Shown: positions 21,778 to 63,549 of the stretch, in pieces
How the letters are laid out: every line of letters begins with the position of its first letter
Numbering within the stretch: position 1 is the stretch's first letter
Sequence record: DRR378314_135
DNA length: 64,000 nt
Direction: 5' to 3' (one strand)
The notes under the pieces: model-generated
Databases searched by the model: none
What the model was told of the DNA's origin: nothing
What the model saw: the letters and a program-made list of their open reading frames with translations, nothing else
Made by a program: the position numbers and the translations under genes

Positions 21778-21781
21778 GGCC

Positions 21782-23297: not shown

Positions 23298-23310
23298 GAC
23301 ATCTTCTCCT

Positions 23311-25302: not shown

Positions 25303-25430
25303 GTCGTCCCCATAGGTCTGATGCAAGTCGATACCGCATGCTCGCCTTGGGGCTGGCTTGGTGTCTGGCGCGTTGAGTGGCCCGATTATTCTCTGTCATC
25401 AAGCCTTCGCACTTGCGGCGCCTAATTTAA

Positions 25431-25447
25431 TTTATTAATTCTGTCAA
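25431..25447. promoter_or_regulatory. Possible Iron-Rhodo-box-like site TTTATTAATTCTGTCAA
   Basis: AT-rich hmuR/hmuS divergent region; centre and right arm match CTGAC-TRAWTYA-GTCAG, left arm is poor. Confidence 0.35.
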
Positions 25448-25556
25448 GAAATATCCCGATGCGCATATGACTCTCTCGCACCGGATGTCAGCCTGATCGC
25501 CCCATCCAATGGGCGCACGCCAGCAGTATCCCCAGACACAAGAATCGAGGACCCTG

Positions 25557-27460: not shown

Positions 27461-27463
27461 TCC

Positions 27464-29331: not shown

Positions 29332-29419
29332 TCTGAACGCCCTGACACCGATGCCAAAGGCTCGCGCTTCACCACAGCCGGCCTTTGGTTTTTCGAAGCC
29401 CCAAGACCGCGCACCGCAA

Positions 29420-31900
29420 TCAAGCCGACGCAACCTGGGACACGGTATCGGGCCCTGCCATCACCGAAGCCATGCAGCGCAGCAGATGCTGCTTGTTGAT
29501 CGGCTTGGACAGAAAGGAATTCATGCCAGCCGCCGCGCAGGCCTCCCTGTCGCTGGCAAAGGCATTGGCGGTCAGCGCCACTATGGGTGGTTGAAAGCTC
29601 TGCTCGTTGCGGATCAAACGCGTGGCCGTGAGCCCATCCATCACGGGCATGGACATGTCCATCAGCACCACATCCGGCTGACAACTCGCGCAGAGTTCAA
29701 CCGCCTCCAGCCCGTTCTGTGCCTCGATCAATTCAACCGACAGGTCAGAGAGATATTTGCGGATCAACAGACGATTTGTGCGATTGTCCTCCGCCAGGAG
29801 AACCTTGCTGCCGCGAATGCGGTCCAGATCAGGTTCCAACCTGGCCGCGGGTGCCCCCAGCTCGCCCACCGGCGGATTGCACTGGACATAGAGTGAGAAG
29901 CAGCTGCCCTCGCCCGGCGTAGAGCACACGGTGATGTCGCCCCCCATCTGACTGGCCAGATGGCGGGAAATCGTAAGACCGAGCCCGGTACCGCCAAACG
30001 CACGCGTCGTCGCTGCATCCGCTTGTGAGAACCGCTCAAAAATATTGCGCAACTGAAGTTGCGAAAGTCCAATACCGGTATCGTCTACATCAATGGTCAA
30101 CGCATAGGGGTTGCCCTTGGCACGCATCACGCGGACATCGATCCGCCCGGAAGAGGTGAATTTGACGGCGTTCCCGACAAGGTTCACGAGGATTTGCCGC
30201 AACCGACCATCGTCCGTGCGCACCCGGGCCGGCAGGTCGGGCGCATAGTCGACGTTCAGCAATAGCCCCTTGTCCTGCGCGACAGGCCGCAAAAGGTCGA
30301 TCGCGCTTTCGACACATGTTTCAAGGTTGAAATCCACATCTGTCAGCGACAGCTTTCCCGTCTCGAGACGCGACAAATCAAGGATATCATTGATAATCTT
30401 CAGAAGCGCCTTGGAAGACGTGCGAATGACCTGCACGTATTGCTCTTCTTCTTCCGGCAGATCGGACTCCGACAGGAGATCAGCCATCCCGATGATACCG
30501 TTCATGGGCGTGCGGATTTCATGGCTCATGTTCGCAAGGAACTCGGACTTGGCGCGGTCTGCCTTTTCGGCGGCCAGCTTTGCATCGGCAAGCTCTGCCG
30601 CATTGCGTTTGGATGCGGTGACATCGCGTTCGATCCCGATCACCATGCGCAGTTCGCCAGCTTCATCCTGCACCGGCACAAGGTTTGTATCGACCCAGAT
30701 TTTCTCGCCCGACTTGGTATAGTTCAGGATTTGCCTGTGCAAACGCTCACCGCGCGCGATATGTTCGGCGATCTCCCGAACCGTGGTCAGGTCGGTCTCC
30801 GCCCCGTTCAAAAGATCGCCCGGCCGCTGCCCCTTTGCCTCTTCGATGCTGTAGCCGGTCATTCGGGTAAAGGCGGCATTGACCCAAAAGATACAGCCGT
30901 CAGCTCCGGAAAGAATGATGCTGTCGGAGGCGTTCTGAGCCACGGTCGACAGTTGCTCCAGCTCCACCTGCTTGTGCTGCAACTCCTGTTCGCGCGTGCG
31001 CAGTTTCTTGATCGCGCTGCGCCGGACAGCGGACAACCGGCAGGCCATATAGGTGGGAACGATGATCAGCACGCCAGCCGTGAGCAGGATCAAGCGCATA
31101 GGCCACAGATTCTGCGGCTCACTGGACCAGCCACCGCGCGGGGTCGCTGCCATTTGCCAGGTTCCCGTCGGCAGGGCGATATCCATCAGAACGGCATCGC
31201 GCTCAAAAATCGCCTCATCTCCGTAAAAGACGTCGCCTTGCTCTCCCATTCCATCACGTCCAGCCAAGGCGATATCGAGTGTCGCGCTTGCGTCGGTCAG
31301 TCCGGCATCTGCATAGACAATCTGCGCATCCACAACCGTTGAAACGATGCCCCAGAATCGCCGTTCCTCGCCTTCATCGACAAAGATCGGAAAACGACCG
31401 ATGAATCCGCGCCCCCCCTGAACCAGATCGACAGGGCCTGCCAGCACCACATTGTCAATGTCGCGCGCACGCAGTGCGGCTTCTCTTTGGGCATCGTTTT
31501 GATTGTAGTCCAAGCCGAGGGCGGCCTTGTTGCGTTCATACGGATAGACCATCGTCACCACGAGATCTGGCGCAACCGCGATGTTCAGGATTTCTGGCAT
31601 GTCGCCGACAGCGATGGAGGCGATCTCGCTGAAACGCTCCTGTGACATGGTCCGATCAAGCGCCAGAACGGCCACCAGTCCCTTGATCAGCTGGAGGTCG
31701 GCATTCAGATGCCCTTCAAGGCGAGATCGGATCAAACCGGCCTCGCTCTGCACATCCGCGCGCAGGCTTTGTTGGTGGATCGTTCGGTTCTGTTGCTCTG
31801 CGAAAATCAGCGCGACAATGACCACAAGCAAAGCGATCAATGTTGGCAGATAGGTCCGGTTCACCACAGCCAAACCGGCTACTCGGCCCCAATGGCGCAC
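29420..31900 (-). CDS. Hybrid sensor histidine kinase (CHASE-PAS-HisKA-HATPase-REC)
   Basis: AGPVDLVQGG (CHASE), VN.AF..MTGY (PAS), FLANMSHEIRTPMNG, NAVKFT, GGTGLGL, DMSMPVMDG. Confidence 0.92.
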   Translation of the reverse strand: MRHWGRVAGLAVVNRTYLPTLIALLVVIVALIFAEQQNRTIHQQSLRADVQSEAGLIRSRLEGHLNADLQLIKGLVAVLALDRTMSQERFSEIASIAVGDMPEILNIAVAPDLVVTMVYPYERNKAALGLDYNQNDAQREAALRARDIDNVVLAGPVDLVQGGRGFIGRFPIFVDEGEERRFWGIVSTVVDAQIVYADAGLTDASATLDIALAGRDGMGEQGDVFYGDEAIFERDAVLMDIALPTGTWQMAATPRGGWSSEPQNLWPMRLILLTAGVLIIVPTYMACRLSAVRRSAIKKLRTREQELQHKQVELEQLSTVAQNASDSIILSGADGCIFWVNAAFTRMTGYSIEEAKGQRPGDLLNGAETDLTTVREIAEHIARGERLHRQILNYTKSGEKIWVDTNLVPVQDEAGELRMVIGIERDVTASKRNAAELADAKLAAEKADRAKSEFLANMSHEIRTPMNGIIGMADLLSESDLPEEEEQYVQVIRTSSKALLKIINDILDLSRLETGKLSLTDVDFNLETCVESAIDLLRPVAQDKGLLLNVDYAPDLPARVRTDDGRLRQILVNLVGNAVKFTSSGRIDVRVMRAKGNPYALTIDVDDTGIGLSQLQLRNIFERFSQADAATTRAFGGTGLGLTISRHLASQMGGDITVCSTPGEGSCFSLYVQCNPPVGELGAPAARLEPDLDRIRGSKVLLAEDNRTNRLLIRKYLSDLSVELIEAQNGLEAVELCASCQPDVVLMDMSMPVMDGLTATRLIRNEQSFQPPIVALTANAFASDREACAAAGMNSFLSKPINKQHLLRCMASVMAGPDTVSQVASA

Positions 31901-32129
31901 CGCTTATGCCTCCGTGTCATAACAGGATCCTCAACAAGATGACTGACTACATTCTCGCAGCTAAAACTTCCCGGATCGTTAACCTACAATCATTCCGGCG
32001 CCTGCCCTGAAGACATGCGAATCTTTGAAAGATTGAAATCTATTGAGCCGGAAACGCAAGAGGTTGATCGGCATCACGCGCAACGGGGGCGCAACGCCAT
32101 GCCAATGCATCCCTAGACCGCGCGGGCGT

Positions 32130-32948
32130 TCACTGATCCCGGAGGACGCAATGACGCCCGATCGGAAGCATCATCGGCGCACCTGAGACCGGGTCAGACA
32201 CGACCTGACAATCGAGCCCGAACACCCGAGCAACCATTTGCGGCGTCAGCACATCAGACGGGTGCCCCATTCCTTCAAGCCGACCGGCCACCATCGCCGC
32301 GAGCCAATCGCAATAGCGCGCAGCAAGGTTCAGATCGTGCAACACCATGACGATGGTCGTGCCGCGCGTGCGATTGAGATCCACGAGAAGGTCAAGAACC
32401 TCAATCTGGTGATTGATATCGAGAAACGTTGTCGGCTCGTCCAGCAGCAGTATGCCCGTTTCCTGCGCAAGTGCCATCGCGATCCAGACCCGCTGGCGCT
32501 GCCCGCCAGACAGTTCGTCAACATCGCGATCCGCAAGGTCGGCAATGCCCATGGCCTGCAGCGCCGTGGCGACGGCAGCGTCATCCTGCGCCGACCACCT
32601 TGCCCATAACCCCTGATGCGGGTGGCGCCCACGGCCAACCAGGTCGAGCACCGAAATACCGTCCGGCGCAACCGGGCTTTGTGGCAAGAGACCCAAAGCA
32701 CGTGCCAGTTCCTTTGGCGGCATGCGGTGGATCGATGCCCCGTCAAGCAGCACCTCGCCTTTGAAAGGTCGCAGCAGACGCGACAGGCTACGCAACAAGG
32801 TGGATTTGCCACAGGCGTTTGCACCGACAATTGCCGTGATCTGCCCCTCCGGCACGGTAAAATCCAGTCCCTCAAGTATGGCGCGGTCTCCGTATCGGGT
32901 CTCCAGTCCGGTCGCGATCAGGGATTTCCGTCTCAGATGCAGGTTCAA
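32130..32948 (-). CDS. Iron-siderophore ABC transporter ATPase (FepC/FhuC-like)
   Basis: GANACGKST, LSGGQRQRVWIAMALAQ, DEPTTFLD. Confidence 0.93.
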   Translation of the reverse strand: MNLHLRRKSLIATGLETRYGDRAILEGLDFTVPEGQITAIVGANACGKSTLLRSLSRLLRPFKGEVLLDGASIHRMPPKELARALGLLPQSPVAPDGISVLDLVGRGRHPHQGLWARWSAQDDAAVATALQAMGIADLADRDVDELSGGQRQRVWIAMALAQETGILLLDEPTTFLDINHQIEVLDLLVDLNRTRGTTIVMVLHDLNLAARYCDWLAAMVAGRLEGMGHPSDVLTPQMVARVFGLDCQVVSDPVSGAPMMLPIGRHCVLRDQ

Positions 32949-33994
32949 GACAGCGCTCCTTTGCGGTGCATGCGAATGAGAAGATAGAGCAGATAGGGTG
33001 CCCCCAATGCGCCGGTGACAATCCCGACCGGATAACGCGACGGCAAGAGAAACTGCCCGGCATAATCGGCAGCGAGCACAAGCACGGCACCCGTCAGCGC
33101 AGACGTCATTAAGAGCGGGCCACTGGCGCGTGTCATCCGCGAGGCAATCGGGCGAGACAGGAACGCAACAAAGGCGATCGGACCACAGACGGCGGTGGCG
33201 ACCGCAATCACCCCTACCGCCGACAGAACGACAAGCAAGCGGGTGCGCGCCACTGAGGCCCCAATGGCTGCTGCGGCCTCATCCCCCATTTGGAGCGCAC
33301 CGAGCGCCCGCCCCTGCAGCAGAAGCATGCCGCCGCAAATCCCCAGTGTCACGATCACCGGCACCGCCTGCATCAGTGTCGCGCCGTTCAAGGTGCCGGT
33401 CAGCCAGCGCAGGGCTTCTTCCAGGCTCCAGGCCGGGGCTTTGGACAGCGTGTAGGCGGTGACACTCTGCAGCATCGCCGCAACGCCGATCCCGATCAGG
33501 ATAAGCCGCCCGCCTGCCACACCATCGCGCCACGCCAGCAGGTAGATCACCATGGCGACCACAAGCGCGGCCAGCACGGCAAACACAGAGACCAGCCCGC
33601 CGGATGCTCCGAAAAAGACGATGGCAAAGACCGCTGCGGCACCCGCTCCAGCGGAAATTCCGATGATATCAGGACTGGCAAGCGGATTTCGCAATAAGAC
33701 CTGGAACGCCGCCCCGGCAAGGCCGAAGCTGAGGCCGCCAACCGCCCCGAGAACCGCCCGTGGCAGGCGCAGTTCACGCACCGTGAACCCGACTCCGGGC
33801 ACCTCATGCCCCCATAGCACCCGGATCACATCAAGCGGCGCAGTCACGGATTGGCCGATGGCCAGCGTAACACACACCAACGCCATCAAAAGCGCGCCCA
33901 GCAGCACGCAAAGGCGCCGCAGCTCTCGGCGACGGCGGTCGCGCTGCAGGCGGATGCTCTGGATCAATGGCGCAGGCGCTGCGAGGGTTTTCAT
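32945..33994 (-). CDS. Iron-siderophore ABC permease (FecCD family, FepG-like)
   Basis: LRLPR, RNPLASPD, GPIAFVA, PVGIVTG. Confidence 0.92.
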   Translation of the reverse strand: MKTLAAPAPLIQSIRLQRDRRRRELRRLCVLLGALLMALVCVTLAIGQSVTAPLDVIRVLWGHEVPGVGFTVRELRLPRAVLGAVGGLSFGLAGAAFQVLLRNPLASPDIIGISAGAGAAAVFAIVFFGASGGLVSVFAVLAALVVAMVIYLLAWRDGVAGGRLILIGIGVAAMLQSVTAYTLSKAPAWSLEEALRWLTGTLNGATLMQAVPVIVTLGICGGMLLLQGRALGALQMGDEAAAAIGASVARTRLLVVLSAVGVIAVATAVCGPIAFVAFLSRPIASRMTRASGPLLMTSALTGAVLVLAADYAGQFLLPSRYPVGIVTGALGAPYLLYLLIRMHRKGALS

Positions 33995-35055
33995 AGCTCA
34001 CGTATTCTCTTGCGGCGCACGATCGCAATGAAGACCGGCGCGCCGACAAAGGCGGTGACAACGCCAGCTTCCAGCTCTCCCGGACGGGCCAGGAAACGGC
34101 CCAGCACATCCGCCAGTGTGAGCAGGACTGCGCCACCCAGAGCGCTGAGCGGCAACAGGAGACGGTGATCGACGCCCGCAATCAATCGGCAGGCATGCGG
34201 GACCACAAGACCGACAAACCCGATCGGCCCGCAGATCGCCGTGGCTGCGGCACAGAGAAGAACTGCCCCCAGCGCCGCCATGAAACGCAGCCGGGCCACC
34301 CGTGTTCCAAGCACCGCTGCGGCCTCATCCCCAAGCGCAAGCATATTGAGCCCGCGCGCGCTGAGAAGCGACAGGAGCAGGCCCACGCCAAAGAAGGGCA
34401 ACATCGGGCGGATCGCCTCGAAGGTGGCACCGCCCACACCGCCGATCTGCCAAAGCTGAATTCCCCCGGCAATATCCCCGCGCGGCAGGATGATCGCGAG
34501 TGTCAGAGAGGCGAGCGCGACCGATGTGGCGGCACCCGCCAATGCAAGCTTCAACGGGGTTGCGCCCCCGCGACCAAGGCTGCCAACCGCATAGACAAAG
34601 ATCGCGGCAATTGCTGCGCCTGCGCTTGCCACCCAGAGGAAGCCAGTCAGCGACTGCATGTTGAACCACGCGACCGCAATCACAACAGCCATCGCAGCGC
34701 CGGCGTTGACGCCAAGAATGCCCGGATCGGCGAGCGGGTTCCGGGTAAGCCCCTGCATGACCGCTCCGGAAACGCCCAGCGCCGCCCCGGCCAGCGCCGC
34801 AAGGAGCGTTCGCGGCAAACGCATCTGAACAACGGCCTGCCCCAACGTCTCATTCCGCCCACTCAGACCACCCAGGACATCGCCCCAGCTCACGTCTCGG
34901 GCGCCGTAGCCCAATGACAGAAATGCCGAAACGCACAGCAGCGCCAGCAGCAGAGGGACCGCCCCCATCGCGCCGAGGTAGCGGCGAGACGGGGGCGGTG
35001 CGGGTACGTTTCGCCCCGTGCAGCCAGTGGTCGCTTCCTGGGCGATCGATGTCAT
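33991..35055 (-). CDS. Iron-siderophore ABC permease (FecCD family, FepD-like)
   Basis: RLPRT, TRNPLADPGILGV, GPIGFVGLVVPH. Confidence 0.92.
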   Translation of the reverse strand: MTSIAQEATTGCTGRNVPAPPPSRRYLGAMGAVPLLLALLCVSAFLSLGYGARDVSWGDVLGGLSGRNETLGQAVVQMRLPRTLLAALAGAALGVSGAVMQGLTRNPLADPGILGVNAGAAMAVVIAVAWFNMQSLTGFLWVASAGAAIAAIFVYAVGSLGRGGATPLKLALAGAATSVALASLTLAIILPRGDIAGGIQLWQIGGVGGATFEAIRPMLPFFGVGLLLSLLSARGLNMLALGDEAAAVLGTRVARLRFMAALGAVLLCAAATAICGPIGFVGLVVPHACRLIAGVDHRLLLPLSALGGAVLLTLADVLGRFLARPGELEAGVVTAFVGAPVFIAIVRRKRIREL

Positions 35056-36089
35056 TCGGCGTTCCGCGCAGCCTCAGCGAGGCGGGCAACATAGGTCTCG
35101 AGAACCCAGTCGATGGCCAGCGGTGTCGGGTTGGCTCCGGTCCCCATCGGGTCATTGGCCATCAGCACCAGCGCATCATTCTCGATCACCGGCATGCGCG
35201 CGGTCAGGGGGTTGTTCCTCAGGCTCTCCAAGAGGTCCTGCCCGCCATAGGTCACTGCAATGTCGACGTCGGTAAAACTGTCGATCCGCTCCACGCTGAT
35301 TTCGCCCGAGTACCGTCCTGCCTCAGTGGCATCGCGCACGCTTTGGGGGGAAATCATGCCGAGGTCTTCAAAGAACTGCACCCGCAGATCATTGGCCGAA
35401 TAGAACCGAATGACGCTCAGATCACGTGCCCGCAGATGCGTGATGAACATCGCGCGTTTTCCGGCGATTTCCGGGTATTTGGCGGTGATCGCGGCGATCT
35501 TGTCCTCGATTTCAGCAACAAGTGCCTCCCCTTCCTGCGCCATTCCCATGGCGGTGGAATTGAGGCGGATCACCTCGCGCCAGCTGGTCGCCCAGGGCCC
35601 GACGCTATAGGCGACCACCGGAGCAATCTTGCTCAGCGTATCGTAGTCGGACTGGCTGATGCCGGAATAGGCAGCCAGGATCAGATCGGGCTCGGTGGCG
35701 GCGACCGCTTCGAAGTCAATGCCATCGCCCTCGTCGAACAGCGGCGGCATGTCCGCATCCAGTTCGGCAAGCCTCTCTTCGACCCAAGGAAAGACACCAT
35801 TGTCGTCGTCATCCCCGAAGTTGACCTTGGCAAAGCCCACGGGCACCACCCCAAGCGCCAACGGCACTTCGTGATTGCTCCAGCCGATCGCCGCGATACG
35901 GGTGGGTTTCTGCGCCACGACCGTGGTGCCCAGCGCGTGTTCCACAACGACCGGGAAGGTCTGCGCGGCGACGCTGGCGTCCTCCTGTGCCATGGCCGGG
36001 ACGGCGCCAATAGCCGCGAGCGCTGCAAAGGCCAGCAGGACGCCGGAACGCCCCTGTTTCAGACAACGACGGAACAGCTGAGACATCAT
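35052..36089 (-). CDS. Iron-siderophore ABC substrate-binding protein
   Basis: HALGTT, LALGVVPVG, IDFEAVA...PDLILAAYSG, LSKIAP; GAGGAGG RBS before the ATG at 36089. Confidence 0.9.
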   Translation of the reverse strand: MMSQLFRRCLKQGRSGVLLAFAALAAIGAVPAMAQEDASVAAQTFPVVVEHALGTTVVAQKPTRIAAIGWSNHEVPLALGVVPVGFAKVNFGDDDDNGVFPWVEERLAELDADMPPLFDEGDGIDFEAVAATEPDLILAAYSGISQSDYDTLSKIAPVVAYSVGPWATSWREVIRLNSTAMGMAQEGEALVAEIEDKIAAITAKYPEIAGKRAMFITHLRARDLSVIRFYSANDLRVQFFEDLGMISPQSVRDATEAGRYSGEISVERIDSFTDVDIAVTYGGQDLLESLRNNPLTARMPVIENDALVLMANDPMGTGANPTPLAIDWVLETYVARLAEAARNAE

Positions 36090-36213
36090 GAACCTCCTCG
36101 ACGTCAATGATCTCCATTCCCATTTCGAGTTTCACGATGCCCCTCACCGGTCAACCGAAGCAGGCAGGAAAATCAGGGCCAAACCGCCACCAAGGCGGAA
36201 ACAACCAGAGAAA

Positions 36214-36230
36214 CTGACCAAAAAAGTCGA
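36214..36230. promoter_or_regulatory. Iron-Rhodo-box-like operator CTGACCAAAAAAGTCGA
   Basis: TGAC-N7-GTC palindrome matching the Rhodobacteraceae iron box (CTGACtrawtyaGTCAG), in the divergent promoter of the siderophore genes. Confidence 0.55.
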
Positions 36231-36431
36231 TTTTTACAATACGCGCCACCTCCCGACGGATAGGCAGCGGCGCGAACATACGCCCGGCCACAGCCACGCA
36301 ACCACTTTCCCTCGGGTGAGCGCCGCCAGTCCCCCCGTGTGCTCTGTTCCCCTCGCCCGGTGGTCCTGGCTCTTGGACCATCAGACGAAGCCTCAGAAAC
36401 AGAAAAACAATAACCAGATGGGACCTCTAGG

Positions 36432-38531
36432 ATGACCCTTGAAACGCCAAACATCAAAGGCCGACGCCTGCGCGCCCTGATGGCAGGTTGCACGGCCCTG
36501 ATCGCCGTTCCGAGCCTTGCCATCGCGCAAGCCGATGACGAATTGATCGTGCTGGAACCGATCACGGTTCAAGCTCAGGACGACACGCAAACGCTGGTGG
36601 CAAGCGAAGTGACCTCCGGCTCCGGGCTTGCGACGGATGTGATGGACACCTCCGCCACAGTCTCGGTCGTAACCGCACGCGAAATCCAACAGCGCGGCGC
36701 CCAGACCATCGAGCAGGTGCTGAACTATACTGCAAGCGTGGTGACCGACTACTACGGCGCAGACAGTCGTTTCGACTACTTTAGAATCCGCGGTTTTGAT
36801 GCTTACACCTATCGGGACGGGCTGCGGGTCGGCGCCTCCTTCGGTGGGCTGCGCGAAGAGCCCTATGCGTTTGAACGGGTCGAGGTCGTGAAGGGCGGCA
36901 ACTCCACCACCTTTGGCGTGTCGGATCCCGGTGGGTCGGTGAACTTTGTCACCAAGACGCCAAAACAGGGTCGCCACGGCGAGGCCTATTTGTCGTTCGG
37001 CTCATTCAACAGCAAAGAAGTCGGGTTTGACTTCGGCGACGATCTGAATGCAGACGGGACCCTCTCCTATCGTCTGGTTGGCCTGGTGCGCGACGCAGAT
37101 GCCGAATGGGATTTTTCGCGTGATGACGAGACCTACCTGGGCGCAAGCATTGCCTGGCGTCCAACTGCGATGACCAGCCTCGTCTTTGCGGTGGACCGGC
37201 TGCACCGGGATGGCGTCCCGGGCGGTGGTGGCCATCCAATGGACACGGACTATGACGCCAGCCGCTATTTTGGCGAGCCTGATTTCAACTATCGTGGCGT
37301 TGATCGCAACACGGCCTCCCTCATGTTCAATCATGAGTTCGACAACGGGCTACAGCTGGGGGTGTCCGCGCGCTACACCGACAGTGCCTCCGACTACGGC
37401 TATGTCTATCTTGATGACCGCAGGAACATCGCGCCCGGCGCCAATGTGGTGGATCGTTTTCTGTTCGCCAACGATTCATCCGGCAATGACTTTGTCATAA
37501 ATGCAAATCTTCAGTATGACGCCAGCTTTGGCGCCATCGACAGCCGCACGCTGGTCGGTATCGAATATTCCGACAGCAGCGACTTCAACACGGCCTGGTG
37601 GTCCGCCGTCGACCCGATCGACCACACCAATTTCGCCTATACAGGCGGCGGCTATGACCTCGACAGTATCGCGCCCTACCAGGTGCGCCGTACAGATCAG
37701 ACCACAAAAAGCGTGTATCTGCAGGAAGAGCTGACCTTCAACGAGCAATGGATCGCCAACTTCGGCCTGCGCTACGACGAAGGTGAAACCACGCAGACCA
37801 ACCTGCAGACCGGCGCCACGTCAAGCGGCGACTACGGCGAGACAACCCTGCGGGCGGGTCTCCTTTACAAGGTCACGCCGGACCTGTCCGTCTACGGCAG
37901 CTATTCTGAATCCGTGATCCCGGCGGGCCTTACTGTTGAACCGGAACGTGGTCGTCAGTTGGAGGCAGGCGTCAAATACCGTCCGGCTGGTGGGCGTGCC
38001 TTGCTGTCCGCCTCGATTTACGATCTGACCAAACACAACATGACGGTCACAAACCCGACCACCATGATGGATGAGACCATCGGCGAGTCCAGCGTACGCG
38101 GTCTCGATCTCGAAGCGAAGGTTGACCTCTACCGGAACTTCTCGATCATTGCAGGCTACTCGCACCTTGACTCCGAAATCGTCGATGACGGTGACGGCGG
38201 CAATGAAGGCAACGCACTGCAGTTTGTTCCCAGCAATGTCGGCTCGCTCTGGGTGAACTACACGCTGGAGGGCGCTGGCAATCGGGGCGACATGGTGTTC
38301 GGACTTGGTGCGCGCTACACTGGCGCGATGTGGTACGACAATGCCAACACACGCGAGGGAGACTCCTTCACCGTGGTCGATGCCTCCTTCTCCTACGACA
38401 TCCAAGAGAATACCAACCTTCGCCTCAACGTCACCAACCTGTTTGACAAGAAACACATCTCAGGTGGCATCGGCGCAAATTGGTATTCACCCGCACGCAC
38501 CATCAGCGCCACCCTGACCCGTACCTGGTAG
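36432..38531 (+). CDS. TonB-dependent siderophore receptor (FhuA/FoxA-like)
   Basis: TonB box (ITVQA), IRGF, ERVEVVKG....FG...PGGSVN.VTK, NLFDK, C-terminal Trp. Confidence 0.92.
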   Translation: MTLETPNIKGRRLRALMAGCTALIAVPSLAIAQADDELIVLEPITVQAQDDTQTLVASEVTSGSGLATDVMDTSATVSVVTAREIQQRGAQTIEQVLNYTASVVTDYYGADSRFDYFRIRGFDAYTYRDGLRVGASFGGLREEPYAFERVEVVKGGNSTTFGVSDPGGSVNFVTKTPKQGRHGEAYLSFGSFNSKEVGFDFGDDLNADGTLSYRLVGLVRDADAEWDFSRDDETYLGASIAWRPTAMTSLVFAVDRLHRDGVPGGGGHPMDTDYDASRYFGEPDFNYRGVDRNTASLMFNHEFDNGLQLGVSARYTDSASDYGYVYLDDRRNIAPGANVVDRFLFANDSSGNDFVINANLQYDASFGAIDSRTLVGIEYSDSSDFNTAWWSAVDPIDHTNFAYTGGGYDLDSIAPYQVRRTDQTTKSVYLQEELTFNEQWIANFGLRYDEGETTQTNLQTGATSSGDYGETTLRAGLLYKVTPDLSVYGSYSESVIPAGLTVEPERGRQLEAGVKYRPAGGRALLSASIYDLTKHNMTVTNPTTMMDETIGESSVRGLDLEAKVDLYRNFSIIAGYSHLDSEIVDDGDGGNEGNALQFVPSNVGSLWVNYTLEGAGNRGDMVFGLGARYTGAMWYDNANTREGDSFTVVDASFSYDIQENTNLRLNVTNLFDKKHISGGIGANWYSPARTISATLTRTW

Positions 38532-38570
38532 CGCTGTTTTGCTTCAGTCCGGCCCTGTCATGGGGCCGGG

Positions 38571-39470
38571 CTACGCGTCTTCGCGATCATTCAACAGCCG
38601 CCGCCAGCTTGCCGGCGTATGCCCGGAGACATCCCGAAACACCTTGGTGAAATGGGACTGGTCCGAAAACCCGAGCCGTGCCGCTACGTCTGCCACGCTC
38701 AAATCCGTATCTCTCAGCAACCTTTGCGCGTTGCTCACCCGCCGGTTCTTCTGCCATCTGACAGGTGTCACTCCAGTGGTGCTCTTGAAGACATGCGAGA
38801 ACCAGCTTTCCGACAGGCCGACCAATTGCGCCATCTCAGAGATCGACATGCGCTGCCCGCCGCGCTGGTCAAATCCCTGTCGCAGCTTTCGCATCTGGTG
38901 CGCAGTCAATCGTCCGGCACTGGGTTTTGCCTTGGACAGCGCCGGAGAGAGCGCTGCAATCACCATCGCGCAGGACAAGCTTTCAAAGTAGAATTCATCA
39001 TGCGCCGGATCGGAAATCTCCGACATCAACAGATGCGCAAGGGCCTCGACTTGAGGAGAGCCTTCGGTGCTGATCGTGCGGCTGAACATGTCATCAACCA
39101 CATGCTCCCCCAGCGAGGGCGTCAACAATTGACGCAACCAGGCCGCTTCGAAATGCAGGTCCAGATGGCGGAATTCATGCGCCTTGCTGAAATAACTGCT
39201 CAGTGACTGCCCCGCCGGAACGAACAGCGCCGTCGACAGCGACTGGCCACTCCGCGCTGCAGCGTCGTGACCCTCACTGATGCGCACGCAGGACATGTCA
39301 TCGAGAAAGACCATCAACCTGGGCACATCCGACCAATATGATCCATGGGCACCAGCATCTCCTCTGGCTTCCCAGTGTATCCCCAGCATCCGCGCGCAGC
39401 ATCGCCATCGCGCCGGAACCGTGACCTCGATACCCTCGGTCTTCCCCTCGAAATTTTGAAGCAACCCCAC
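38571..39470 (-). CDS. AraC-family transcriptional regulator (likely of siderophore uptake)
   Basis: C-terminal double HTH: LSESWFSHVFK..TG.TP, GFSDQSHFTKVF. Confidence 0.92.
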   Translation of the reverse strand: MGLLQNFEGKTEGIEVTVPARWRCCARMLGIHWEARGDAGAHGSYWSDVPRLMVFLDDMSCVRISEGHDAAARSGQSLSTALFVPAGQSLSSYFSKAHEFRHLDLHFEAAWLRQLLTPSLGEHVVDDMFSRTISTEGSPQVEALAHLLMSEISDPAHDEFYFESLSCAMVIAALSPALSKAKPSAGRLTAHQMRKLRQGFDQRGGQRMSISEMAQLVGLSESWFSHVFKSTTGVTPVRWQKNRRVSNAQRLLRDTDLSVADVAARLGFSDQSHFTKVFRDVSGHTPASWRRLLNDREDA

Positions 39471-39830
39471 CGCGTCATCTCCACGCTCTGTTCAGATTGC
39501 CTGATGGCGAGGCTGTCCTAGAGGGCTCGACACGGAAGTGGCGCCGGTCAAACTGTCCTATAGGCATGGCGGGCTGTCAGGTAGATTACAGCCCTTGAAT
39601 ACAACTCGCGACCCAAACTGTCCATCGGTCAACACCGGCATCGACGCCGCCTTGCAGTTGCACGGTGGCCAAAACACGTGCCTGAAGACAGTCTAAAGCC
39701 ATGCTGGAACACGCTTGCCTGTGCTCACTTAGCCCAGTCACGCCAAAGCGGCGCGTATTTCACAGATGGCGAAATCTTCCGGCTCGGTCAGCTATCGGTG
39801 CAGGTCGAGATGCAGTCGAAGGCGCATCTT

Positions 39831-40253
39831 CTAATTCGGATTGGCTTCCAGAATGGCTTCAAACCGATCCCGCGCACGTTTTGGCAACCCCTCCGGCAGG
39901 CGCTCGGTTGCAACGCCATCCCCCACTTCTATCACCATCACCATACCCATCGAGAAATGCGGAGAACACTTGATCCCGTACCGCCCCGGAGCAGTTAGCA
40001 TCACGGTAAAATCCTCGTTGATCTTACCTTTGAAGGGCGTCGCGTCAGCCGGAATCATACCGTCGATGGTCGCGGCGTTGTGGCTGGGCTGGGTTGGAGT
40101 GAAGCGCACGCTATCACCGGGTGCGATCCGAAGATACGCCGGATCATACAGCATTGCGCCGTGCTCGTTGCGATTGAACATCTGCACCTCATGGATCTCG
40201 GCCAGAGCCGGTGAGGCCAGGAGTATCGCAATCAGGAAGTTGGAAATTTTCAT
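39831..40253 (-). CDS. paz: Pseudoazurin (type-1 blue copper protein)
   Basis: Signal peptide, HEVQMFN, PGDSVRF, SHN and C-SPH-FSMG-M giving the complete His/Cys/His/Met ligand set; ATGA overlap with the upstream ATPase. Confidence 0.9.
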   Translation of the reverse strand: MKISNFLIAILLASPALAEIHEVQMFNRNEHGAMLYDPAYLRIAPGDSVRFTPTQPSHNAATIDGMIPADATPFKGKINEDFTVMLTAPGRYGIKCSPHFSMGMVMVIEVGDGVATERLPEGLPKRARDRFEAILEANPN

Positions 40254-41026
40254 AGATATAAATCCTCGAGACAATGAAAACGGAATATGGTCGCCTGATC
40301 ACCCGGATCACGCAGGCGAGTGGCGCGAATACGGAAAATCTCAGCAAGCCGATCCGGGGTCAGCACGTCGGCAGGCGTACCGCAGGCGACCAGCCGACCG
40401 CCGTCCATGACTCCCAGCCGGTCACATCCCATCGCCTGATTCAGATCGTGCAGGGCCATGACAACGGTAATGGGCAAGCGCCCCACCAACCGCAGCAACG
40501 CCAGTTGATGGTGGATATCCAGATGATTGGTCGGCTCGTCCAGCATCAGCAGCCGGGGGCGTTGCGCCAATGCGCGGGCGATCTGCACACGCTGACGCTC
40601 TCCGCCCGACAAGGTGGACCAGGCACGTCCCGCCATGTCCGCCATGCCGACCGTCTGCAGAGCGTCAGAGACAATGGCAGCGTCCTGAGTATCAAAAGGC
40701 GCAAGAGCCGAAAGCCATGGGGTGCGGCCCAGTGCAACCACATCACGCACGGTCAGGGTTTCGGCCGTATCGGTGATCTGCTCCACAAATGCGAGCTTTC
40801 GGGCCACCTCTCGTCGGGATAGGCTGGCCATGGAACGCCCATCCAGATGCACCTCGCCAAGGGGACGCGACTGAAGGCCCGCCATGAGCCGCAACAAGGT
40901 GGATTTGCCCGACCCGTTGGGCCCGATCAAGCCAAACGTCTCTCCCGGCGCAATGTCCAGAGACACATCCTCGACAATGGGCTGCGCGCCTGTGCGCCAG
41001 CCCAGAGACTTCGCAGTGAGCTTCAT
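40250..41026 (-). CDS. Cobalt/cobalamin-type ABC transporter ATPase (CbtL/BtuD-like)
   Basis: GPNGSGKST, LSGGERQR, DEPTNHLD; downstream of the B12 riboswitch. Confidence 0.88.
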   Translation of the reverse strand: MKLTAKSLGWRTGAQPIVEDVSLDIAPGETFGLIGPNGSGKSTLLRLMAGLQSRPLGEVHLDGRSMASLSRREVARKLAFVEQITDTAETLTVRDVVALGRTPWLSALAPFDTQDAAIVSDALQTVGMADMAGRAWSTLSGGERQRVQIARALAQRPRLLMLDEPTNHLDIHHQLALLRLVGRLPITVVMALHDLNQAMGCDRLGVMDGGRLVACGTPADVLTPDRLAEIFRIRATRLRDPGDQATIFRFHCLEDLYL

Positions 41027-42063
41027 ACCCGTCTCCGGTTGTGGATCAGGATCAGAGCAAATCCCGGCGCTCCCACCAGAGCCGTGACAACGCCGATGGG
41101 TACGACTTGGCCCGGGATCAGCATGCGGGACGCGATATCCGCAACAATCAGGAAGACGGCCCCCGCCAGAGCTGCCGCAGGAACAAGTCGGCTATGACGC
41201 GGCCCCACCACATAACGCATGGCATGCGGAATAACGAGGCCGACAAAACCGATCGACCCCACGAGGCTGACCATAGCCGCCGTCATCAATGTCACCGCTC
41301 CAATCAACACGATCTGGACCCGGCGCACCGGAATGCCCAGCGAGGCGGCAGAGGACGTTCCGAAAGAGAACGCATCCATCGCGCGAGAGAACCAGATGCA
41401 GGTGAAAAAGCCCAGCACAGCAACCGGCACAGCCAGAGACACATCAGGCCAACGCACCCCGGAGAGATTGCCAAGCAGCCAGAACATTATGCCGCGCGCC
41501 TGTTCGGCGTTGGCTGATTTGGCAATCAGAAAGGAGGTCACCGCGTTGAATAGCTGCGAGCCCGCAATGCCCGCCAAAACCAGATGCGCAGGTCCGCCCC
41601 CTGCCGCCCGTGCCAGCGCCGCCACGACAACGAAGGCAAGGCTCGCGCCCAGAAACGAACCTGTGGAAATTCCCAGAACGCCGCCGCCCACACCCAAAAT
41701 CGTCACCGCAACGGCGCCGGCGCCTGCCCCGGCCGAAACCCCCAACAGATAGGGATCAGCCAAGGCGTTGCGCACCAGAGATTGCAGAACAACCCCCGAC
41801 AGCGCCAGCCCAGCTCCGCATGCGGCGGCCACCAATGTACGCGGCAACCGGTAGCTCCAGATGATGCCGGCATCTATGGGGTCCACCATATGTCCAGCAT
41901 CCCAGAGGTTGTTTGCAAAGGCCGCTGCCACCGTTGAGAGTGGGAGCGGTGTCTCGCCGATCACGACACCCGCGAGAACGGCTATCATGAGCACGACCAC
42001 TCCCGGCACGCCCCAAAGCGTGATACGGCGATGCAACATACCTGAAACGGTCGTGTCAGTCAT
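41023..42063 (-). CDS. Cobalt/cobalamin-type ABC permease (CbtK/BtuC-like, FecCD family)
   Basis: RLPR, RNALADPYLLGVS, GSIGFVGLVIPH. Confidence 0.88.
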   Translation of the reverse strand: MTDTTVSGMLHRRITLWGVPGVVVLMIAVLAGVVIGETPLPLSTVAAAFANNLWDAGHMVDPIDAGIIWSYRLPRTLVAAACGAGLALSGVVLQSLVRNALADPYLLGVSAGAGAGAVAVTILGVGGGVLGISTGSFLGASLAFVVVAALARAAGGGPAHLVLAGIAGSQLFNAVTSFLIAKSANAEQARGIMFWLLGNLSGVRWPDVSLAVPVAVLGFFTCIWFSRAMDAFSFGTSSAASLGIPVRRVQIVLIGAVTLMTAAMVSLVGSIGFVGLVIPHAMRYVVGPRHSRLVPAAALAGAVFLIVADIASRMLIPGQVVPIGVVTALVGAPGFALILIHNRRRV

Positions 42064-43069
42064 TTTGGCCCAATGCCGGCAGCGCTTCCGCAAGCGTCTC
42101 CAACGCGGAGATGTTTCGAATGGAGGGATCCATCGCATGGGCATCCAGAACAACGATACGGTCGTTCTTCACCGCATCCATCTGGCTGGCAACGGGATCA
42201 CTGTGCAGGAATTCAAGCTTTTTCTCAACATCATCAGCCTCGAAGCGGCGACGATCCATGCGCGCGACAACGATGACAGATGGGTTTGCACGGGCGATGG
42301 TTTCCCAGCTGACTGTTGGCCACTCCTCGTTGCTTTCGATGACATTGCGCAGACCCAGGGCCTGCATCATGTAGGCCGGAGCCCCTGCCTGGCCTGCGAC
42401 ATAGGGATCGATGTCCATCTCAGCCGAGGAGAACCAGAAAACCGCAGAGCCCTCCGCGAGATCCAGGCCCTGCGCTTTCTCGATTGCGGCAGCTTCACGA
42501 GATTTCAGGCTCTCAACCAGATCGACGCCACGCTCAGGCACATTGAAGATTTGCGCCAGCTCGGCGATCCCCTGATACACGCTGTCCATCGCGTACATTT
42601 CAAGCCGCGTACCGTCCGAGCCTTTGGTGTTGTCTTTGCCGATGCAGTCCGCTGGCAGGACGTAACTTGCGATACCAAGATCCGAGAACTGTTCGCGGGT
42701 GGCAACAATCCCCTGTGGACCTACATGCCATTCGTACTGAACGGTCACCAGATCGGGACGCTGTGCAACCACGCTCTCAAAGCTGGGATCATTGTCCGCC
42801 AGACGCTCGATACCGGCGTTCACCTCTTCGAACTCTGGCAACACCTTGGTGAACCAGACGGACGTTCCGGCGACTTGTTCGCCAAGCCCGAGGGAATACA
42901 AAACCTCAGTCGCGGCCTGCCCCACCGCAACGGTCTTTTCAGGTGCTTTGTCAAACGTCAGCTCGACACCGCAGTTGTCAAGCGTCAGCGGATAAGACGT
43001 CTCCGCATGAACAGAGAGCGCAAAGCTCGCAGCGCCGAAAGTAACGGCGGCCAGTGTTTTCGAATACAT
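42056..43069 (-). CDS. ABC substrate-binding protein, CbtJ-like (cobalt/corrinoid)
   Basis: YPLTLDNCG, LADNDPSFESVV, WHVGPQG, ADC.GKDN resemble rhizobial CbtJ as I recall it; first gene after the riboswitch. Confidence 0.75.
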   Translation of the reverse strand: MYSKTLAAVTFGAASFALSVHAETSYPLTLDNCGVELTFDKAPEKTVAVGQAATEVLYSLGLGEQVAGTSVWFTKVLPEFEEVNAGIERLADNDPSFESVVAQRPDLVTVQYEWHVGPQGIVATREQFSDLGIASYVLPADCIGKDNTKGSDGTRLEMYAMDSVYQGIAELAQIFNVPERGVDLVESLKSREAAAIEKAQGLDLAEGSAVFWFSSAEMDIDPYVAGQAGAPAYMMQALGLRNVIESNEEWPTVSWETIARANPSVIVVARMDRRRFEADDVEKKLEFLHSDPVASQMDAVKNDRIVVLDAHAMDPSIRNISALETLAEALPALGQND

Positions 43070-43249
43070 GGATCAACTCCGGAAGATAATGGACCCGGAG
43101 AAAGCGAGGACATGTCGTTGCACGGCTGAAGCAGAGCGCTGACGGCGAGAGTCGGCGCATATACTCTGGCAATGATCAGCGCCAACGGATCCGCTGACAG
43201 TCTCATTCGACACCTCCCCGGACACCCCGTCCGAGCCAAGTTGCATACA

Positions 43250-43425
43250 GCGTCGGCAGGTCTCCTGACTGGCGCTTCATCACATCAACGGCCTTCCCAC
43301 GGCAAAAGCCGCAGTGGCGGTATCGCTGACGCTCGGCGCCTACAGTTGCGGGGGCAGTTCCGGTTCACTGCATAGACAGTGACGGATTCCCTTTTCATCC
43401 CAGATGGAAACCGACTGCGATGTTG
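43250..43425 (-). ncRNA. Cobalamin (AdoCbl) riboswitch
   Basis: The minus strand has AAAAGGGAA, CTGCCCCCGCAACTGT, GCCACTG...GGGAAGG and the B12 box AGTCAGGAGACCTGCC, in canonical order. Confidence 0.95.
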
Positions 43426-43530
43426 TATGAGCGTCACATGATGATAGCAATACCAATCCGATGACCTACCGGTGATCGAGACGCCGTCAGCGGCCTTTGA
43501 CGACGCATTCAGCGCAGGCCTTGACTGTGA

Positions 43531-44409
43531 CTAGTCGGCTGCAATCAGCAACAGCTCCGCAGTGATGCATATCCGGTTTTCCGCAGTCGCCAGTTGTCCG
43601 GTGGCAAACCGCCCGTCAAATCCGACCGAGGCCGCATGGATTTCCGGCACGTCCCCCGCCTCCAGATGCCCCTGCGTCAGGAGAACTTCGGTTGCATAGC
43701 TCTGTTGACTGGCTTTGCCGTCAGTCTCTGACTGCTCTTTCACAAAACAGGTCCGGATCAAACTGCCAATACCTTCGATGCGCAGGGTCTCCCCCAAACC
43801 TTGGTCTGCCTGCACCGCGTGCGGCAGGAGAAGATCCGGGTCTTCATTCGGCCGGAGCCGACATAGAGCCGCTGCATGCCCCTGCTGATCGCTCACCTTG
43901 GCGCGCGCGACAGGCTCGAACAGATCAAACCCCGTCTCCGGATCCGGGTTCACCACAAACGCGGCACCGGATATACCCCAGCCGTGCGCACGCAGATCTT
44001 CGGAAAGGACAGAATGCGGCGCCAGCATGTGGCCCATGCAAGGTTCCGCCTGCGGTTCGGTCCATATGCCGTGGCAGTGCAGAAACGGTTTGCCTTCCCG
44101 AAGTCCGAGGTGCAGCCCGGCGTCCAGCACAGTAGCCGACCGCATCTGGTAGGTGCGACTGTACCAAGCTGCCCGCCCGTCCCCCGGCGCCACATCCGGA
44201 ATGACATAGCCTAGCCGCTCGAATTGCGCCTCAGACAACCGCAAGTACCCCGCTTCGAAACCGACCGCAGCAAACGCCTCCGCAACCGCTACATCAAAGG
44301 GCACCCCCGCACGCAAGGTCACGGCGAGCGGATGTGCCTGACACGCCTGTGAGTTATAGCGTTCGGGAGCACGTGGCCCCGGATGTTGCAGCCGACGCGC
44401 TTCGGTCAT
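43531..44409 (-). CDS. Tandem PPC/DUF296 (AF0104/ALDC-like) domain protein
   Basis: PFLHCHGIW...GH motif, FVVNPDPETGFDLF linker, second domain RLRPNED...GIGSL; ATGA overlap with the ligase. Confidence 0.7.
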   Translation of the reverse strand: MTEARRLQHPGPRAPERYNSQACQAHPLAVTLRAGVPFDVAVAEAFAAVGFEAGYLRLSEAQFERLGYVIPDVAPGDGRAAWYSRTYQMRSATVLDAGLHLGLREGKPFLHCHGIWTEPQAEPCMGHMLAPHSVLSEDLRAHGWGISGAAFVVNPDPETGFDLFEPVARAKVSDQQGHAAALCRLRPNEDPDLLLPHAVQADQGLGETLRIEGIGSLIRTCFVKEQSETDGKASQQSYATEVLLTQGHLEAGDVPEIHAASVGFDGRFATGQLATAENRICITAELLLIAAD

Positions 44410-46031
44410 TCCACCTGCGCCTTCTGCTGCGAAACAGAGTGCGCCTGTGCCAGATCTCCGCGCTCCTGCAAGGTTTCGCGGATCATCTTCTTGGTGATCT
44501 TTCCATAGGCGCTCTTGGGCATTTCCTGCCAGAACAGCAACTGGCGGGGCATCTTGTAGCGGGCCAATTGCCCATCGAGCCACTCCAACACAGCCTCGAC
44601 TGTCGGGTTTTTTCCCGCCGTCGCGACACAGACTGCAACGCCAACTTCCCCCCAAACTGGATCAGGTACACCCAGAACGGCCACTTCCGAAATGTCGGGA
44701 TGCTCCAGAATCTTCTCCTCGATCTCGCGCGGGTAAATGTTCGATCCCCCGGAGATATACATGTCCGAGGCCCGTCCAGTCAGGTAGACAAAACCCTCCG
44801 CATCCATGTGACCGAGGTCACCGGTCAAAAACCATCCGTTGCGGAAGCTCTTGGCGTTGGCGCCAGGATTGTCGAAATACCCGGCAAAGACCGCGGGGCC
44901 GATCACCGCTATCTCTCCGGTCTCACCAAACGCAACCTCTGTTCCTTCAGCATTCTGGATCTGCACCTGCATTCCTGTACGGGCAAAACCGCAGGTGCCA
45001 ATGCGCATCTGTGCATCCTCCACGAAATGATGGGCTGGCGGCAGCACGGTAATATTGCCGGTGACCTCGCCCAGTCCAAAATACTGAACCAATTTCGGTC
45101 CCAGAACCTGCAGTGCCTTCACCTGATCAGCCCGATACATCGGCGCGCCAGCATAGATCATGTAGCGCAGGCTGGACTGGTCGAAGTCCGCCACTGAAGG
45201 GTGTTCAACCAAGAGCTTCACGATCGTGGGCACGGTAAAGAGGTTTGAGACCTGCCAGTCCTGAACCAGGCGCCAGATCTCGGCCGCGTCGAATTTTTCA
45301 CCGGCAGGCAGGATTGTCTTGGCGCCATGAGCCACCTGCGACAGCTGATGGATGCCCGCCCCGTGGCTAAGCGGCGCCACAACGATAGACGCATCCTCGG
45401 GTCCGGTTCCGGGCATCAGGTCACACAGGTGACTGGTGACCACAAATGCCATTTGCCCATGCGTCAGCACTGCAGCCTTCGGTCGCCCGGTGGTTCCGGA
45501 CGTAAAGAAGAACCAGCAGGGGTCGTCGCGCTCTACTGCGACGGCAGCTGGCGCCTGTCCCATATAGGCCTCGATCAGCCCCTCGTAGTTGTCCCCCAAG
45601 CCGTCACCAATCCCGACGGTGAAAGCCACGTCCTTGCACGCCGTGGCATGATCGGCGAACTCCGCACCGCACAGCAGCCCCTTGGCACCGGAACTTTCAG
45701 CCAGATAGGCAATGTCCTGCGGCGATTGGCGATAGTTCGCAGGCACCCAGATTGCGCCAATCCGCCAGCAGGCGAACATCGCCTCAAACATCTGGTTGTT
45801 GTTGGCCGATTGCACCAGAATGCGATCACCCTTGGTCACTCCGTACCGTCCGCTCAATGCGGCGGCGAAGGCAGCAGAACGCGCTTCCATCTGCGACCAC
45901 GTCCAGTGTCGATCTCCCCAGACAAAGCCGATTTCCCCCGGCAGTCGCCGCGCGGTTTCGCTCAGAAGGTTGGAGAGATTCATCACACGCGTCGAAATCG
46001 ACGTGATGGCAGTGCTGAGGTGCTGGCTCAT
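44406..46031 (-). CDS. Acyl-CoA synthetase (AMP-forming)
   Basis: FTSGTTGRPK, YFGLGE, TGD, R..DMYISGG.NIYPRE, PKS..GK. Confidence 0.93.
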   Translation of the reverse strand: MSQHLSTAITSISTRVMNLSNLLSETARRLPGEIGFVWGDRHWTWSQMEARSAAFAAALSGRYGVTKGDRILVQSANNNQMFEAMFACWRIGAIWVPANYRQSPQDIAYLAESSGAKGLLCGAEFADHATACKDVAFTVGIGDGLGDNYEGLIEAYMGQAPAAVAVERDDPCWFFFTSGTTGRPKAAVLTHGQMAFVVTSHLCDLMPGTGPEDASIVVAPLSHGAGIHQLSQVAHGAKTILPAGEKFDAAEIWRLVQDWQVSNLFTVPTIVKLLVEHPSVADFDQSSLRYMIYAGAPMYRADQVKALQVLGPKLVQYFGLGEVTGNITVLPPAHHFVEDAQMRIGTCGFARTGMQVQIQNAEGTEVAFGETGEIAVIGPAVFAGYFDNPGANAKSFRNGWFLTGDLGHMDAEGFVYLTGRASDMYISGGSNIYPREIEEKILEHPDISEVAVLGVPDPVWGEVGVAVCVATAGKNPTVEAVLEWLDGQLARYKMPRQLLFWQEMPKSAYGKITKKMIRETLQERGDLAQAHSVSQQKAQVE

Positions 46032-63422: not shown

Positions 63423-63549
63423 ATGCCTGCGCCTCCTGCATTGAACGGCCCGATTAGGCGCAGGCCCGGCACACGCGTTCAACTGATATCCGGGAAAGCT
63501 GATATGCCGTTTGCTGATAGCAAGGCTGCAGACTCGCCGAAGAGATCCG

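Follow-up and report, generated by a model that had tools for sequence, protein, structure and literature searches.

The 64,000-nucleotide stretch of sequence record DRR378314_135 analysed here (hereafter the window) carries on its minus strand a cobalamin riboswitch followed by four tightly packed genes, which encode a periplasmic substrate-binding protein, a FecCD-family permease, an ABC ATPase and, as the last cistron, a pseudoazurin (Table 1). This anatomy, overlapping junctions included, had been proposed from the letters of the window alone (the original prediction) and was confirmed wherever it could be checked against Rfam, Pfam, NCBIfam and the sequence itself; the span then assigned to it, 39831-43425, ends 5 nucleotides (nt) short of the Rfam match. 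The stop codon of the binding-protein gene and the start of the permease gene share an 8-nt overlap (ATGACTGA), an ATGA overlap is read at the permease/ATPase junction and again at the ATPase/pseudoazurin junction, and the motifs GGAG and GAGGA are located 9 nt 5' of the ATG codons of the binding protein and the pseudoazurin, respectively. For the pseudoazurin the ATG at 40253 is favoured as the start, the longer TTG form at 40274 given by a mechanical list of open reading frames (ORFs) being less likely. A simple scan found no promoter-like sites in 39400-43700 and no terminator directly after the pseudoazurin gene, the latter a result that says little; judged by their arrangement, the four genes would be co-transcribed and translationally coupled.

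The riboswitch aptamer matches the complete RF00174 model (positions 1-189) at 106.7 bits (E 1e-25; Rfam gathering score 31.5) and is the sole match to an Rfam family in the window. In the leader separating it from the binding-protein start a simple scan, which says little, found no terminator-like site, and it is because of this result that control is here placed, provisionally, at translation initiation.

The product of the last gene scores 123.6 bits against the NCBIfam equivalog model TIGR02375, above its cut-off of 109.85, and thus belongs to the pseudoazurins. It starts with a hydrophobic Sec-type signal peptide of 18 residues ending in ALA (MKISNFLIAILLASPALA; 40253..40200), after which the mature protein begins with EIHEV (40199..39834). 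The closest solved relative is 1bqk (126.9 bits, E 4.9e-36, approximately 55% identity), 1adw reaching 118.8 bits; residue 22 of the query is aligned with residue 4 of the mature 1bqk chain, and the alignment, which extends to residue 137 of 140, includes the C-terminal helical extension. All four type-1 copper ligands (His58, Cys96, His99 and Met104 in precursor numbering) are present with C-x2-H-x4-M spacing and are invariant in the two alignments compared (A1 and A3), while among 88 distinct sequences of the clade described below H58, C96 and M104 occur in 100% and H99 in 99%, with the loop spacing unchanged. The site probably holds copper rather than cobalt.

Among 61 relatives of the nearest genome, pseudoazurin matches were found at 20 places in 17 genomes, and the three best of these (54-72% identity, all in the genus of the nearest genome) lie directly after the orthologous permease and ATPase genes, longer flanks adding the binding protein and the riboswitch. 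A wider sample was provided by a scan of species-representative genomes, from which the best 80 of 567 confirmed pseudoazurin relatives were taken. The complete colinear order of binding protein, permease, ATPase and pseudoazurin is present in 72 of these 80, whereby the linkage, on whose conservation the original prediction had offered itself for refutation, held among the closest relatives. The ATPase and pseudoazurin genes only, with the rest lost at a contig end or missing, are seen in four loci (L035, L049, L057 and L106), a binding-protein paralogue directly upstream of the pseudoazurin in two (L036 and L100), and a stand-alone pseudoazurin in the last two (L050 and L099). One of the stand-alone copies, which belongs to the clade, is preceded by a 26-residue remnant of an ATPase C-terminus, 73% identical (L050:5596-6087), which points either to an operon that broke up recently or to a join made during assembly. 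The distance from the ATPase stop codon to the first mature residue has a median of 56 nt, approximately one signal peptide, which leaves no intergenic room between the two genes. Judging by record names, the taxa concerned are Rhodobacterales, Rhizobiales/Hyphomicrobiales and Rhodospirillales together with one bin labelled Enterobacterales, and the operon is also found in Paracoccus species and on plasmid pRCB133 of Rhodobacter capsulatus SB1003. As a conserved genetic unit the four-gene arrangement is well supported.

The riboswitch accompanies the unit. Using a covariance model built from four riboswitches, we found one upstream of 69 of the 72 complete related operons, as well as before both binding-protein-pseudoazurin units of the best-80 set. 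No riboswitch was detected, by our own model or at the Rfam gathering score, in three four-gene operons (L061, L063 and L073; upstream of about 3100-3200), nor in L122, which has the binding protein, permease and ATPase without the pseudoazurin; these four may have a leader that has diverged, or may be controlled in some other way. Further cobalamin riboswitches adjoin the operon in several related loci (Table 1), where they precede nrdI, nrdD, cbiM and cobW genes, and these loci are therefore small B12-regulon clusters; on a P. yeei plasmid the operon adjoins cobO/cobW/cobN.

Two genomes contain units composed of riboswitch, binding protein and pseudoazurin, in part with a methyltransferase gene, that have no permease (L036:4558-7172, the same place as L115, and L100:4652-6414). 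Extra binding-protein paralogues, 52-66% identical, were also observed beside the operon in L028, L032, L046, L075, L082 and L098. Taken together, the extra binding proteins and the permease-less units suggest that several binding proteins feed one importer. A second optional member of the operon is a class I S-adenosylmethionine (SAM) methyltransferase (Methyltransf_11), whose gene follows that of the pseudoazurin in 25 of the 80 loci and stands directly after the ATPase gene in L114 and on pSymB of Sinorhizobium meliloti 1021; its best NCBIfam match is the corrinoid-protein-associated CpaM (66 bits, under the cut-off of 180).

The original prediction had asked whether pseudoazurins linked to this transporter form a clade of their own, and they do. 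In a quick IQ-TREE analysis of 111 rows (105 of them different) over 139 columns only, which left out L115, as a duplicate of L036, and, for having too few columns, L095, a branch with a Shimodaira-Hasegawa-like approximate likelihood ratio (SH-aLRT) support of 98 has on one side 94 rows, comprising 89 ATPase-linked, 2 binding-protein-linked and 3 unlinked copies. Outside this linked clade, to which the pseudoazurin of the window belongs, lie all 14 other unlinked copies and three copies from a second type of importer operon (type B, see below). The same branch also separates copies of one genome or species: the linked L001 from the unlinked L019 in genome G019, and in P. denitrificans the linked L131 from L134, which stands on the classical branch. 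Members of the clade are distinguished by a conserved R28 (K in classical copies), by A60 and A61 immediately following the first of the His ligands (V and E in classical copies), by an invariant M106 two residues past the Met ligand (A or G in classical copies) and by a C-terminal LPxxLPxRAxxRF motif in which P124 and R130 are invariant. P. pantotrophus DSM 2944 has a linked copy on its plasmid pPAN2, which was considered as a candidate for the crystallised PazS and rejected, since its match to 1adw, at 107.6 bits, is not an identity.

With regard to the importer itself, model searches place the binding protein near several families without assigning it to any. The top NCBIfam match is EitA (316.9 bits, under the cut-off of 640) and the EitC equivalog model scores 300 against a cut-off of 485, so that membership in the EitABC siderophore importers is not indicated; with the BtuF model the binding protein reaches 20.3 bits against a cut-off of 234 and is hence not of BtuF type, the BtuC model yields 221.7 bits (cut-off 461), and with the F420-0 model the binding protein also remains under the cut-off. 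A clearer picture is obtained from pSymB of S. meliloti 1021, the record of which is unannotated: downstream of a riboswitch at 66,246-66,475 lie genes for binding protein, permease and ATPase, colinear with those of the window, and their products are identical to the window proteins at 54.5%, 66% and 55% of residues, respectively. The replicon has a single homologue of the binding protein of the window, and this homologue adjoins one of the only two cobalamin riboswitch sites on pSymB. We take this locus to be cbtJKL, on the basis of gene numbers and of the published description of cbtJKL as lying on pSymB under a riboswitch. In the relevant passage of one review, cbtJKL of pSymB is described as an adenosylcobalamin-riboswitch-controlled Co(II) importer that was initially mistaken for a B12 transporter (PMC7689651), and passages of two others likewise place it on pSymB under an adenosylcobalamin riboswitch, neither giving coordinates there (PMC4207669, PMC12239276). 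Because of the colinear orthology with pSymB and of the reviews placing cbtJKL there under a riboswitch, the transporter of the window is treated here as an orthologue of CbtJKL and as a predicted cobalt-type importer, and the link to Sinorhizobium CbtJKL drawn in the original prediction is to that extent upheld.

The phenomenon is not limited to cobalt, the setting in which it was originally cast. Three relatives (L024:3583-7093, L025:3556-7072 and L026:3227-6735), and also L137-L141, carry the type B operon, in which a 385-residue Peripla_BP_2 protein, a FecCD permease and an ATPase are encoded together with a pseudoazurin of their own, and for which, in the three relatives, no cobalamin riboswitch was found. 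The best model for the type B binding protein is a ferrichrome/ferrioxamine binding protein (170.5 bits, under the cut-off of 374); the type B pseudoazurin has a Tat-type signal (RRNF/RRSF), all four ligands and a TIGR02375 score of 124.1 bits. In a sample of 301 genera, all five places at least 64% identical to the type B pseudoazurin are linked to a permease and an ATPase, while linkage was seen at only one of 25 weaker places examined, which belongs to an operon of the riboswitch-controlled kind seen in the window (type A). Importers of chelated metals have therefore gained a pseudoazurin on two occasions.

The reading we prefer, with a rough probability of 0.45, is that the pseudoazurin acts as an accessory periplasmic one-electron carrier for the CbtJKL-type cobalt importer. 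Co(III) chelates are substitution-inert, and reduction is needed before the metal can be exchanged; in classical in vitro kinetics cupredoxins act as reductants of Co(III) complexes, [Co(phen)3]3+ being one example, and the aquacobalamin and Co(III)EDTA couples have potentials near or above that of pseudoazurin. In the proposed mechanism, the importer would depend on its binding protein and would be switched off by B12 through the riboswitch, with the last cistron supplying a dedicated, Sec-exported type-1 copper pseudoazurin. This protein would receive electrons from the respiratory chain, as classical pseudoazurins are supplied by cytochrome bc1, and would deliver them to cobalt that is bound in Co(III)-organic complexes, which are kinetically inert, or in Co(III) corrinoid-type species; the resulting exchangeable Co(II) would be captured by the binding protein and imported by the permease and ATPase. 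What we infer in this scheme is the way in which the electrons flow, the nature of the substrate and a contact with the binding protein. Electron transfer is preferred over metal hand-over because the type-1 site is intact and strongly conserved, and a new partner is favoured because the clade has surface and second-shell residues of its own. Most simply, the co-encoded importer would itself provide this partner, in the form of its substrate or its binding protein, and the permease-less units of riboswitch, binding protein and pseudoazurin point to the same partner.

A contact of this kind is weakly supported by a complex prediction for residues 23-337 of the binding protein and 19-140 of the pseudoazurin, which scored 0.44 against 0.04 for the best control, with runs agreeing in at least 92% of contacts and a partner predicted local distance difference test score (pLDDT) of at least 87. 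Of 78 solved complexes, 51 reached the mark applied, as did 2 of 108 mismatched pairs; at scores of 0.60 or under, only 5 of the 78 did so, together with all 4 passing mismatches (of 180).

Several further points weigh, like the weakness of this prediction, against the carrier reading. The count of 72 in 80 describes the clade around the protein of the window rather than pseudoazurins generally, because the loci were chosen by likeness to the query, and the closest solved relative of the binding protein, 4mlz, is an unnamed structural-genomics protein. The orthologous operon on pSymB of S. meliloti 1021 has no pseudoazurin anywhere on that replicon, and the S. meliloti system reportedly takes up 57Co all the same, in work attributed to Cheng et al. 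(2011). In a search anchored on the binding protein, matches were obtained in 17 of 301 family-level and 7 of 401 class-level genomes, and 20 regions were taken; among the 13 untruncated regions with a binding-protein identity of at least 47%, the pseudoazurin follows the ATPase in 6, follows a second nearby binding protein in 1 and is missing from 6, the riboswitch being present in 12 of the 13. Six regions at 38-43% binding-protein identity have neither riboswitch nor pseudoazurin. Three of the five genomes with a pseudoazurin-less operon have no pseudoazurin detectable with the clade profile at E 1e-5, and no fewer than 5-7 changes are required to account for the pseudoazurin-less state on a FastTree phylogeny built from the binding proteins, which implies repeated gain or loss of the gene. 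The pseudoazurin, originally presented as a component of the importer, is thus not a core part of it but an accessory, absent as it is from pSymB and from 6 of the 13 orthologous operons.

Among the alternatives, the one that survives best, if still improbable, is that the importer takes up corrinoids or cobalt-containing breakdown products and that the pseudoazurin interconverts cob(III) and cob(II) for their binding or release. Control by a cobalamin riboswitch would suit such a role, as would the class of the binding protein, which includes BtuF and haem and siderophore binders, and the aquacobalamin couple, which lies near the potential of pseudoazurin; what counts against it is the BtuF score, only 20.3 bits where 234 are required, and the nature of the S. 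meliloti orthologue, a Co(II) importer once mistaken for a B12 transporter according to the passage cited (PMC7689651).

Slightly less probable again is a metal chaperone, in which the cupredoxin site would bind Co(II) (or Cu) and pass cobalt on to the binding protein, electron transfer playing no part. The pseudoazurin is periplasmic, is co-encoded with the binding protein and sometimes adjoins it; the weak complex prediction (0.44 against 0.04) fits this role too, and type-1 sites accept Co(II) in vitro. However, ligands and loop spacing are exactly of the copper-pseudoazurin type in the 88 sequences, with no shift to harder ligands, and the buried His2-Cys-Met site would not be built for fast metal release.

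We consider it quite unlikely that an ordinary respiratory pseudoazurin merely rides on the operon, for example because B12 control would boost electron supply to nitrous oxide and nitrite reductases once N2O has destroyed B12. Its passing of the pseudoazurin equivalog model and its identity of approximately 55% to the nitrite-reductase donor 1bqk agree with such a role, as does the effect of N2O on B12-riboswitch genes in P. denitrificans, described in a portion of PMC5987163. These points are opposed by the separate clade with its R28, A60, A61, M106 and LPxxLPxRAxxRF signature, by the linkage to one transporter family in 72 of the 80 loci and by the distribution of the textbook acceptors. 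That no nirK, nosZ or sox gene lies in the window, as first noted, was borne out by Pfam scans of 48 of its 52 predicted ORFs; outside these scans were 36088-36435, 43876-44214, parts of 58564-59067/60348-60701/60933-61439 and the cut ORF at 63511. Genome-wide checks for partners were made in relatives' genomes. In the five carrier genomes checked there is no cytochrome cd1 domain and no nosZ of either type above the cut-off, a result for which, since the control genomes have none either, there is no positive control. Two of the five (G019 and G557) have nirK, and both retain a second, classical-type pseudoazurin on the nirK contig, approximately 10 kb from that gene; the other three (G004, G005 and G613) show no nirK, nirS or nosZ above the cut-off and therefore carry the linked pseudoazurin without textbook acceptors. 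The weakest alternative, that the protein guards a cobalt-binding protein against mis-metallation by buffering periplasmic copper, has in its favour a presumed high-affinity copper site co-expressed with a metal importer, but nothing in the analysis speaks for it, one site per 13-kDa protein makes a poor buffer and the partnership of type B with a siderophore-like importer would be hard to explain, so that we regard it as very improbable.

Beyond the carrier reading for type A, a broader proposal, possible but doubtful, is that cupredoxin-assisted import of chelated metals constitutes a general, undescribed module, in which ABC importers with class-III binding proteins would have acquired, on two or more occasions, a pseudoazurin paralogue as their dedicated periplasmic redox partner, namely type A (B12-riboswitch cobalt importer, Sec-exported) and type B (hydroxamate-siderophore-like, Tat-exported, no riboswitch).

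Environmental cobalt is scarce, and strong organic complexes probably hold a large part of it, presumably as Co(III); to our knowledge, it has not been explained how bacteria free complexed cobalt for B12 synthesis. An electron carrier dedicated to the importer would give a concrete mechanism for this release and would connect the supply of cobalt and B12 with copper, and the conserved arrangement in many alphaproteobacteria suggests that a redox helper in the periplasm can serve the uptake of cobalt. If the broader proposal is true, the pseudoazurin would be the first known protein to act on the oxidation state of cobalt before uptake, and copper supply would be linked to B12 synthesis in marine and soil alphaproteobacteria. 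Annotations as "pseudoazurin" may also span three or more groups that differ in function (respiratory, cobalt-importer-linked and siderophore-importer-linked), a grouping that matters when denitrification potential is inferred from genomes. The arrangement of an importer with its own pseudoazurin has apparently not yet been described: no literature was found that connects either CbtJKL or a cobalamin riboswitch with a pseudoazurin or any cupredoxin, in a search that did not cover supplementary regulon tables, and the main text of PMC3766115 contains no azurin or copper term, its supplementary regulon tables being a place where the gene might be listed. What was originally put forward as a fourth, possibly undescribed periplasmic component therefore stands as a statement of gene context, well supported by the conserved linkage, the separate clade and the lack of a describing paper.

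The operon is situated at the edge of a metal-uptake region (window 20459-39470; Table 1). On its other side, an ORF of 374 amino acids (window 43531-44655, minus strand), without a Pfam or NCBIfam match, ends approximately 100 nt upstream of the riboswitch; its true start is probably later, because its upstream part overlaps the gene for an AMP-binding enzyme (44406-46031). Farther away (window 52081-55984, plus strand) a DUF4123 protein, a 615-residue protein without a Pfam match and an FGE-sulfatase-domain protein are encoded in succession with overlapping ends; members of the DUF4123 family frequently serve as chaperones for effectors of type VI secretion.

Table 1. Features of the riboswitch-controlled importer operon, of the adjoining metal-uptake region and of related loci (locus handles precede positions outside the window; aa, amino acids)
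Feature	Position	Strand	Evidence
Cobalamin riboswitch aptamer, RF00174	43238..43430	-	cmscan
Leader/putative expression platform, aptamer to binding-protein start	43070..43237	-	sequence; role inferred
Periplasmic substrate-binding protein, CbtJ-like, 337 aa, signal peptide of about 22 aa	42056..43069	-	Peripla_BP_2 6.8e-34
FecCD-family permease, CbtK-like, 346 aa	41023..42063	-	FecCD 1.4e-84
ABC ATPase, CbtL-like, 258 aa	40250..41026	-	ABC_tran 9.3e-36
Pseudoazurin paralogue, transporter-linked, 140 aa	39831..40253	-	PF00127 1.4e-14; TIGR02375
TonB	20459-21523		
ExbD/ExbB	21782-22932		
TonB-dependent receptor	23311-25326		
HemS/ChuX	25509-26612		
Haem-type binding protein and permease (haem ABC importer)	26558-28552		
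CHASE/PAS hybrid histidine kinase	29420-31900		
Siderophore ABC importer with two FecCD permeases	32130-36107		
TonB-dependent siderophore receptor	36432-38531		
AraC regulator	38571-39470		
Related loci with extra riboswitches	L044:1619-2559; L036:3468-4432; L101:5105-7535; L027:7288-8264; L111:1454-2416; L032:104-1810		
Methyltransferase in related loci	L028:6414-7181; L109:19553-20332; L114:2954-3733; L107:9357-10145		

Compared with known systems, the operon of the window is closest in layout to CbtJKL of S. meliloti, in which a riboswitch likewise precedes a Peripla_BP_2 protein, a FecCD permease and an ABC ATPase, the difference being that a class I SAM methyltransferase gene follows the ATPase there whereas the window has the pseudoazurin in this position. 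With BtuFCD it shares riboswitch control and the same permease and ATPase families, but its binding protein is not BtuF-like (20.3 against 234 bits), and we know of no cupredoxin in BtuFCD. The pseudoazurin agrees with the classical ones (1bqk of A. cycloclastes and the Paracoccus PazS, 1adw) in family model, length, ligands, loop spacing and C-terminal helical extension; the latter are, however, encoded near nir/nos genes and not as the last gene of an importer operon, and the linked copies show conserved substitutions, with AA in place of VE beside the first His ligand, M in place of A/G past the Met ligand, and others in the C-terminal helices.

A cupredoxin-type periplasmic protein inside a metal-uptake operon, as in the window, is also seen in FtrB of FtrABCD and EfeO of EfeUOB, systems that are characterised by Ftr1-type permeases and Fe(II) oxidation. 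For such cupredoxin components of iron uptake, FtrB among them, a change in the oxidation state of the metal for transport has been proposed, according to a passage of PMC11966278. In the window, by contrast, the partner is a binding-protein-dependent FecCD-type ABC importer, the context is that of cobalt and the cupredoxin is a true pseudoazurin.

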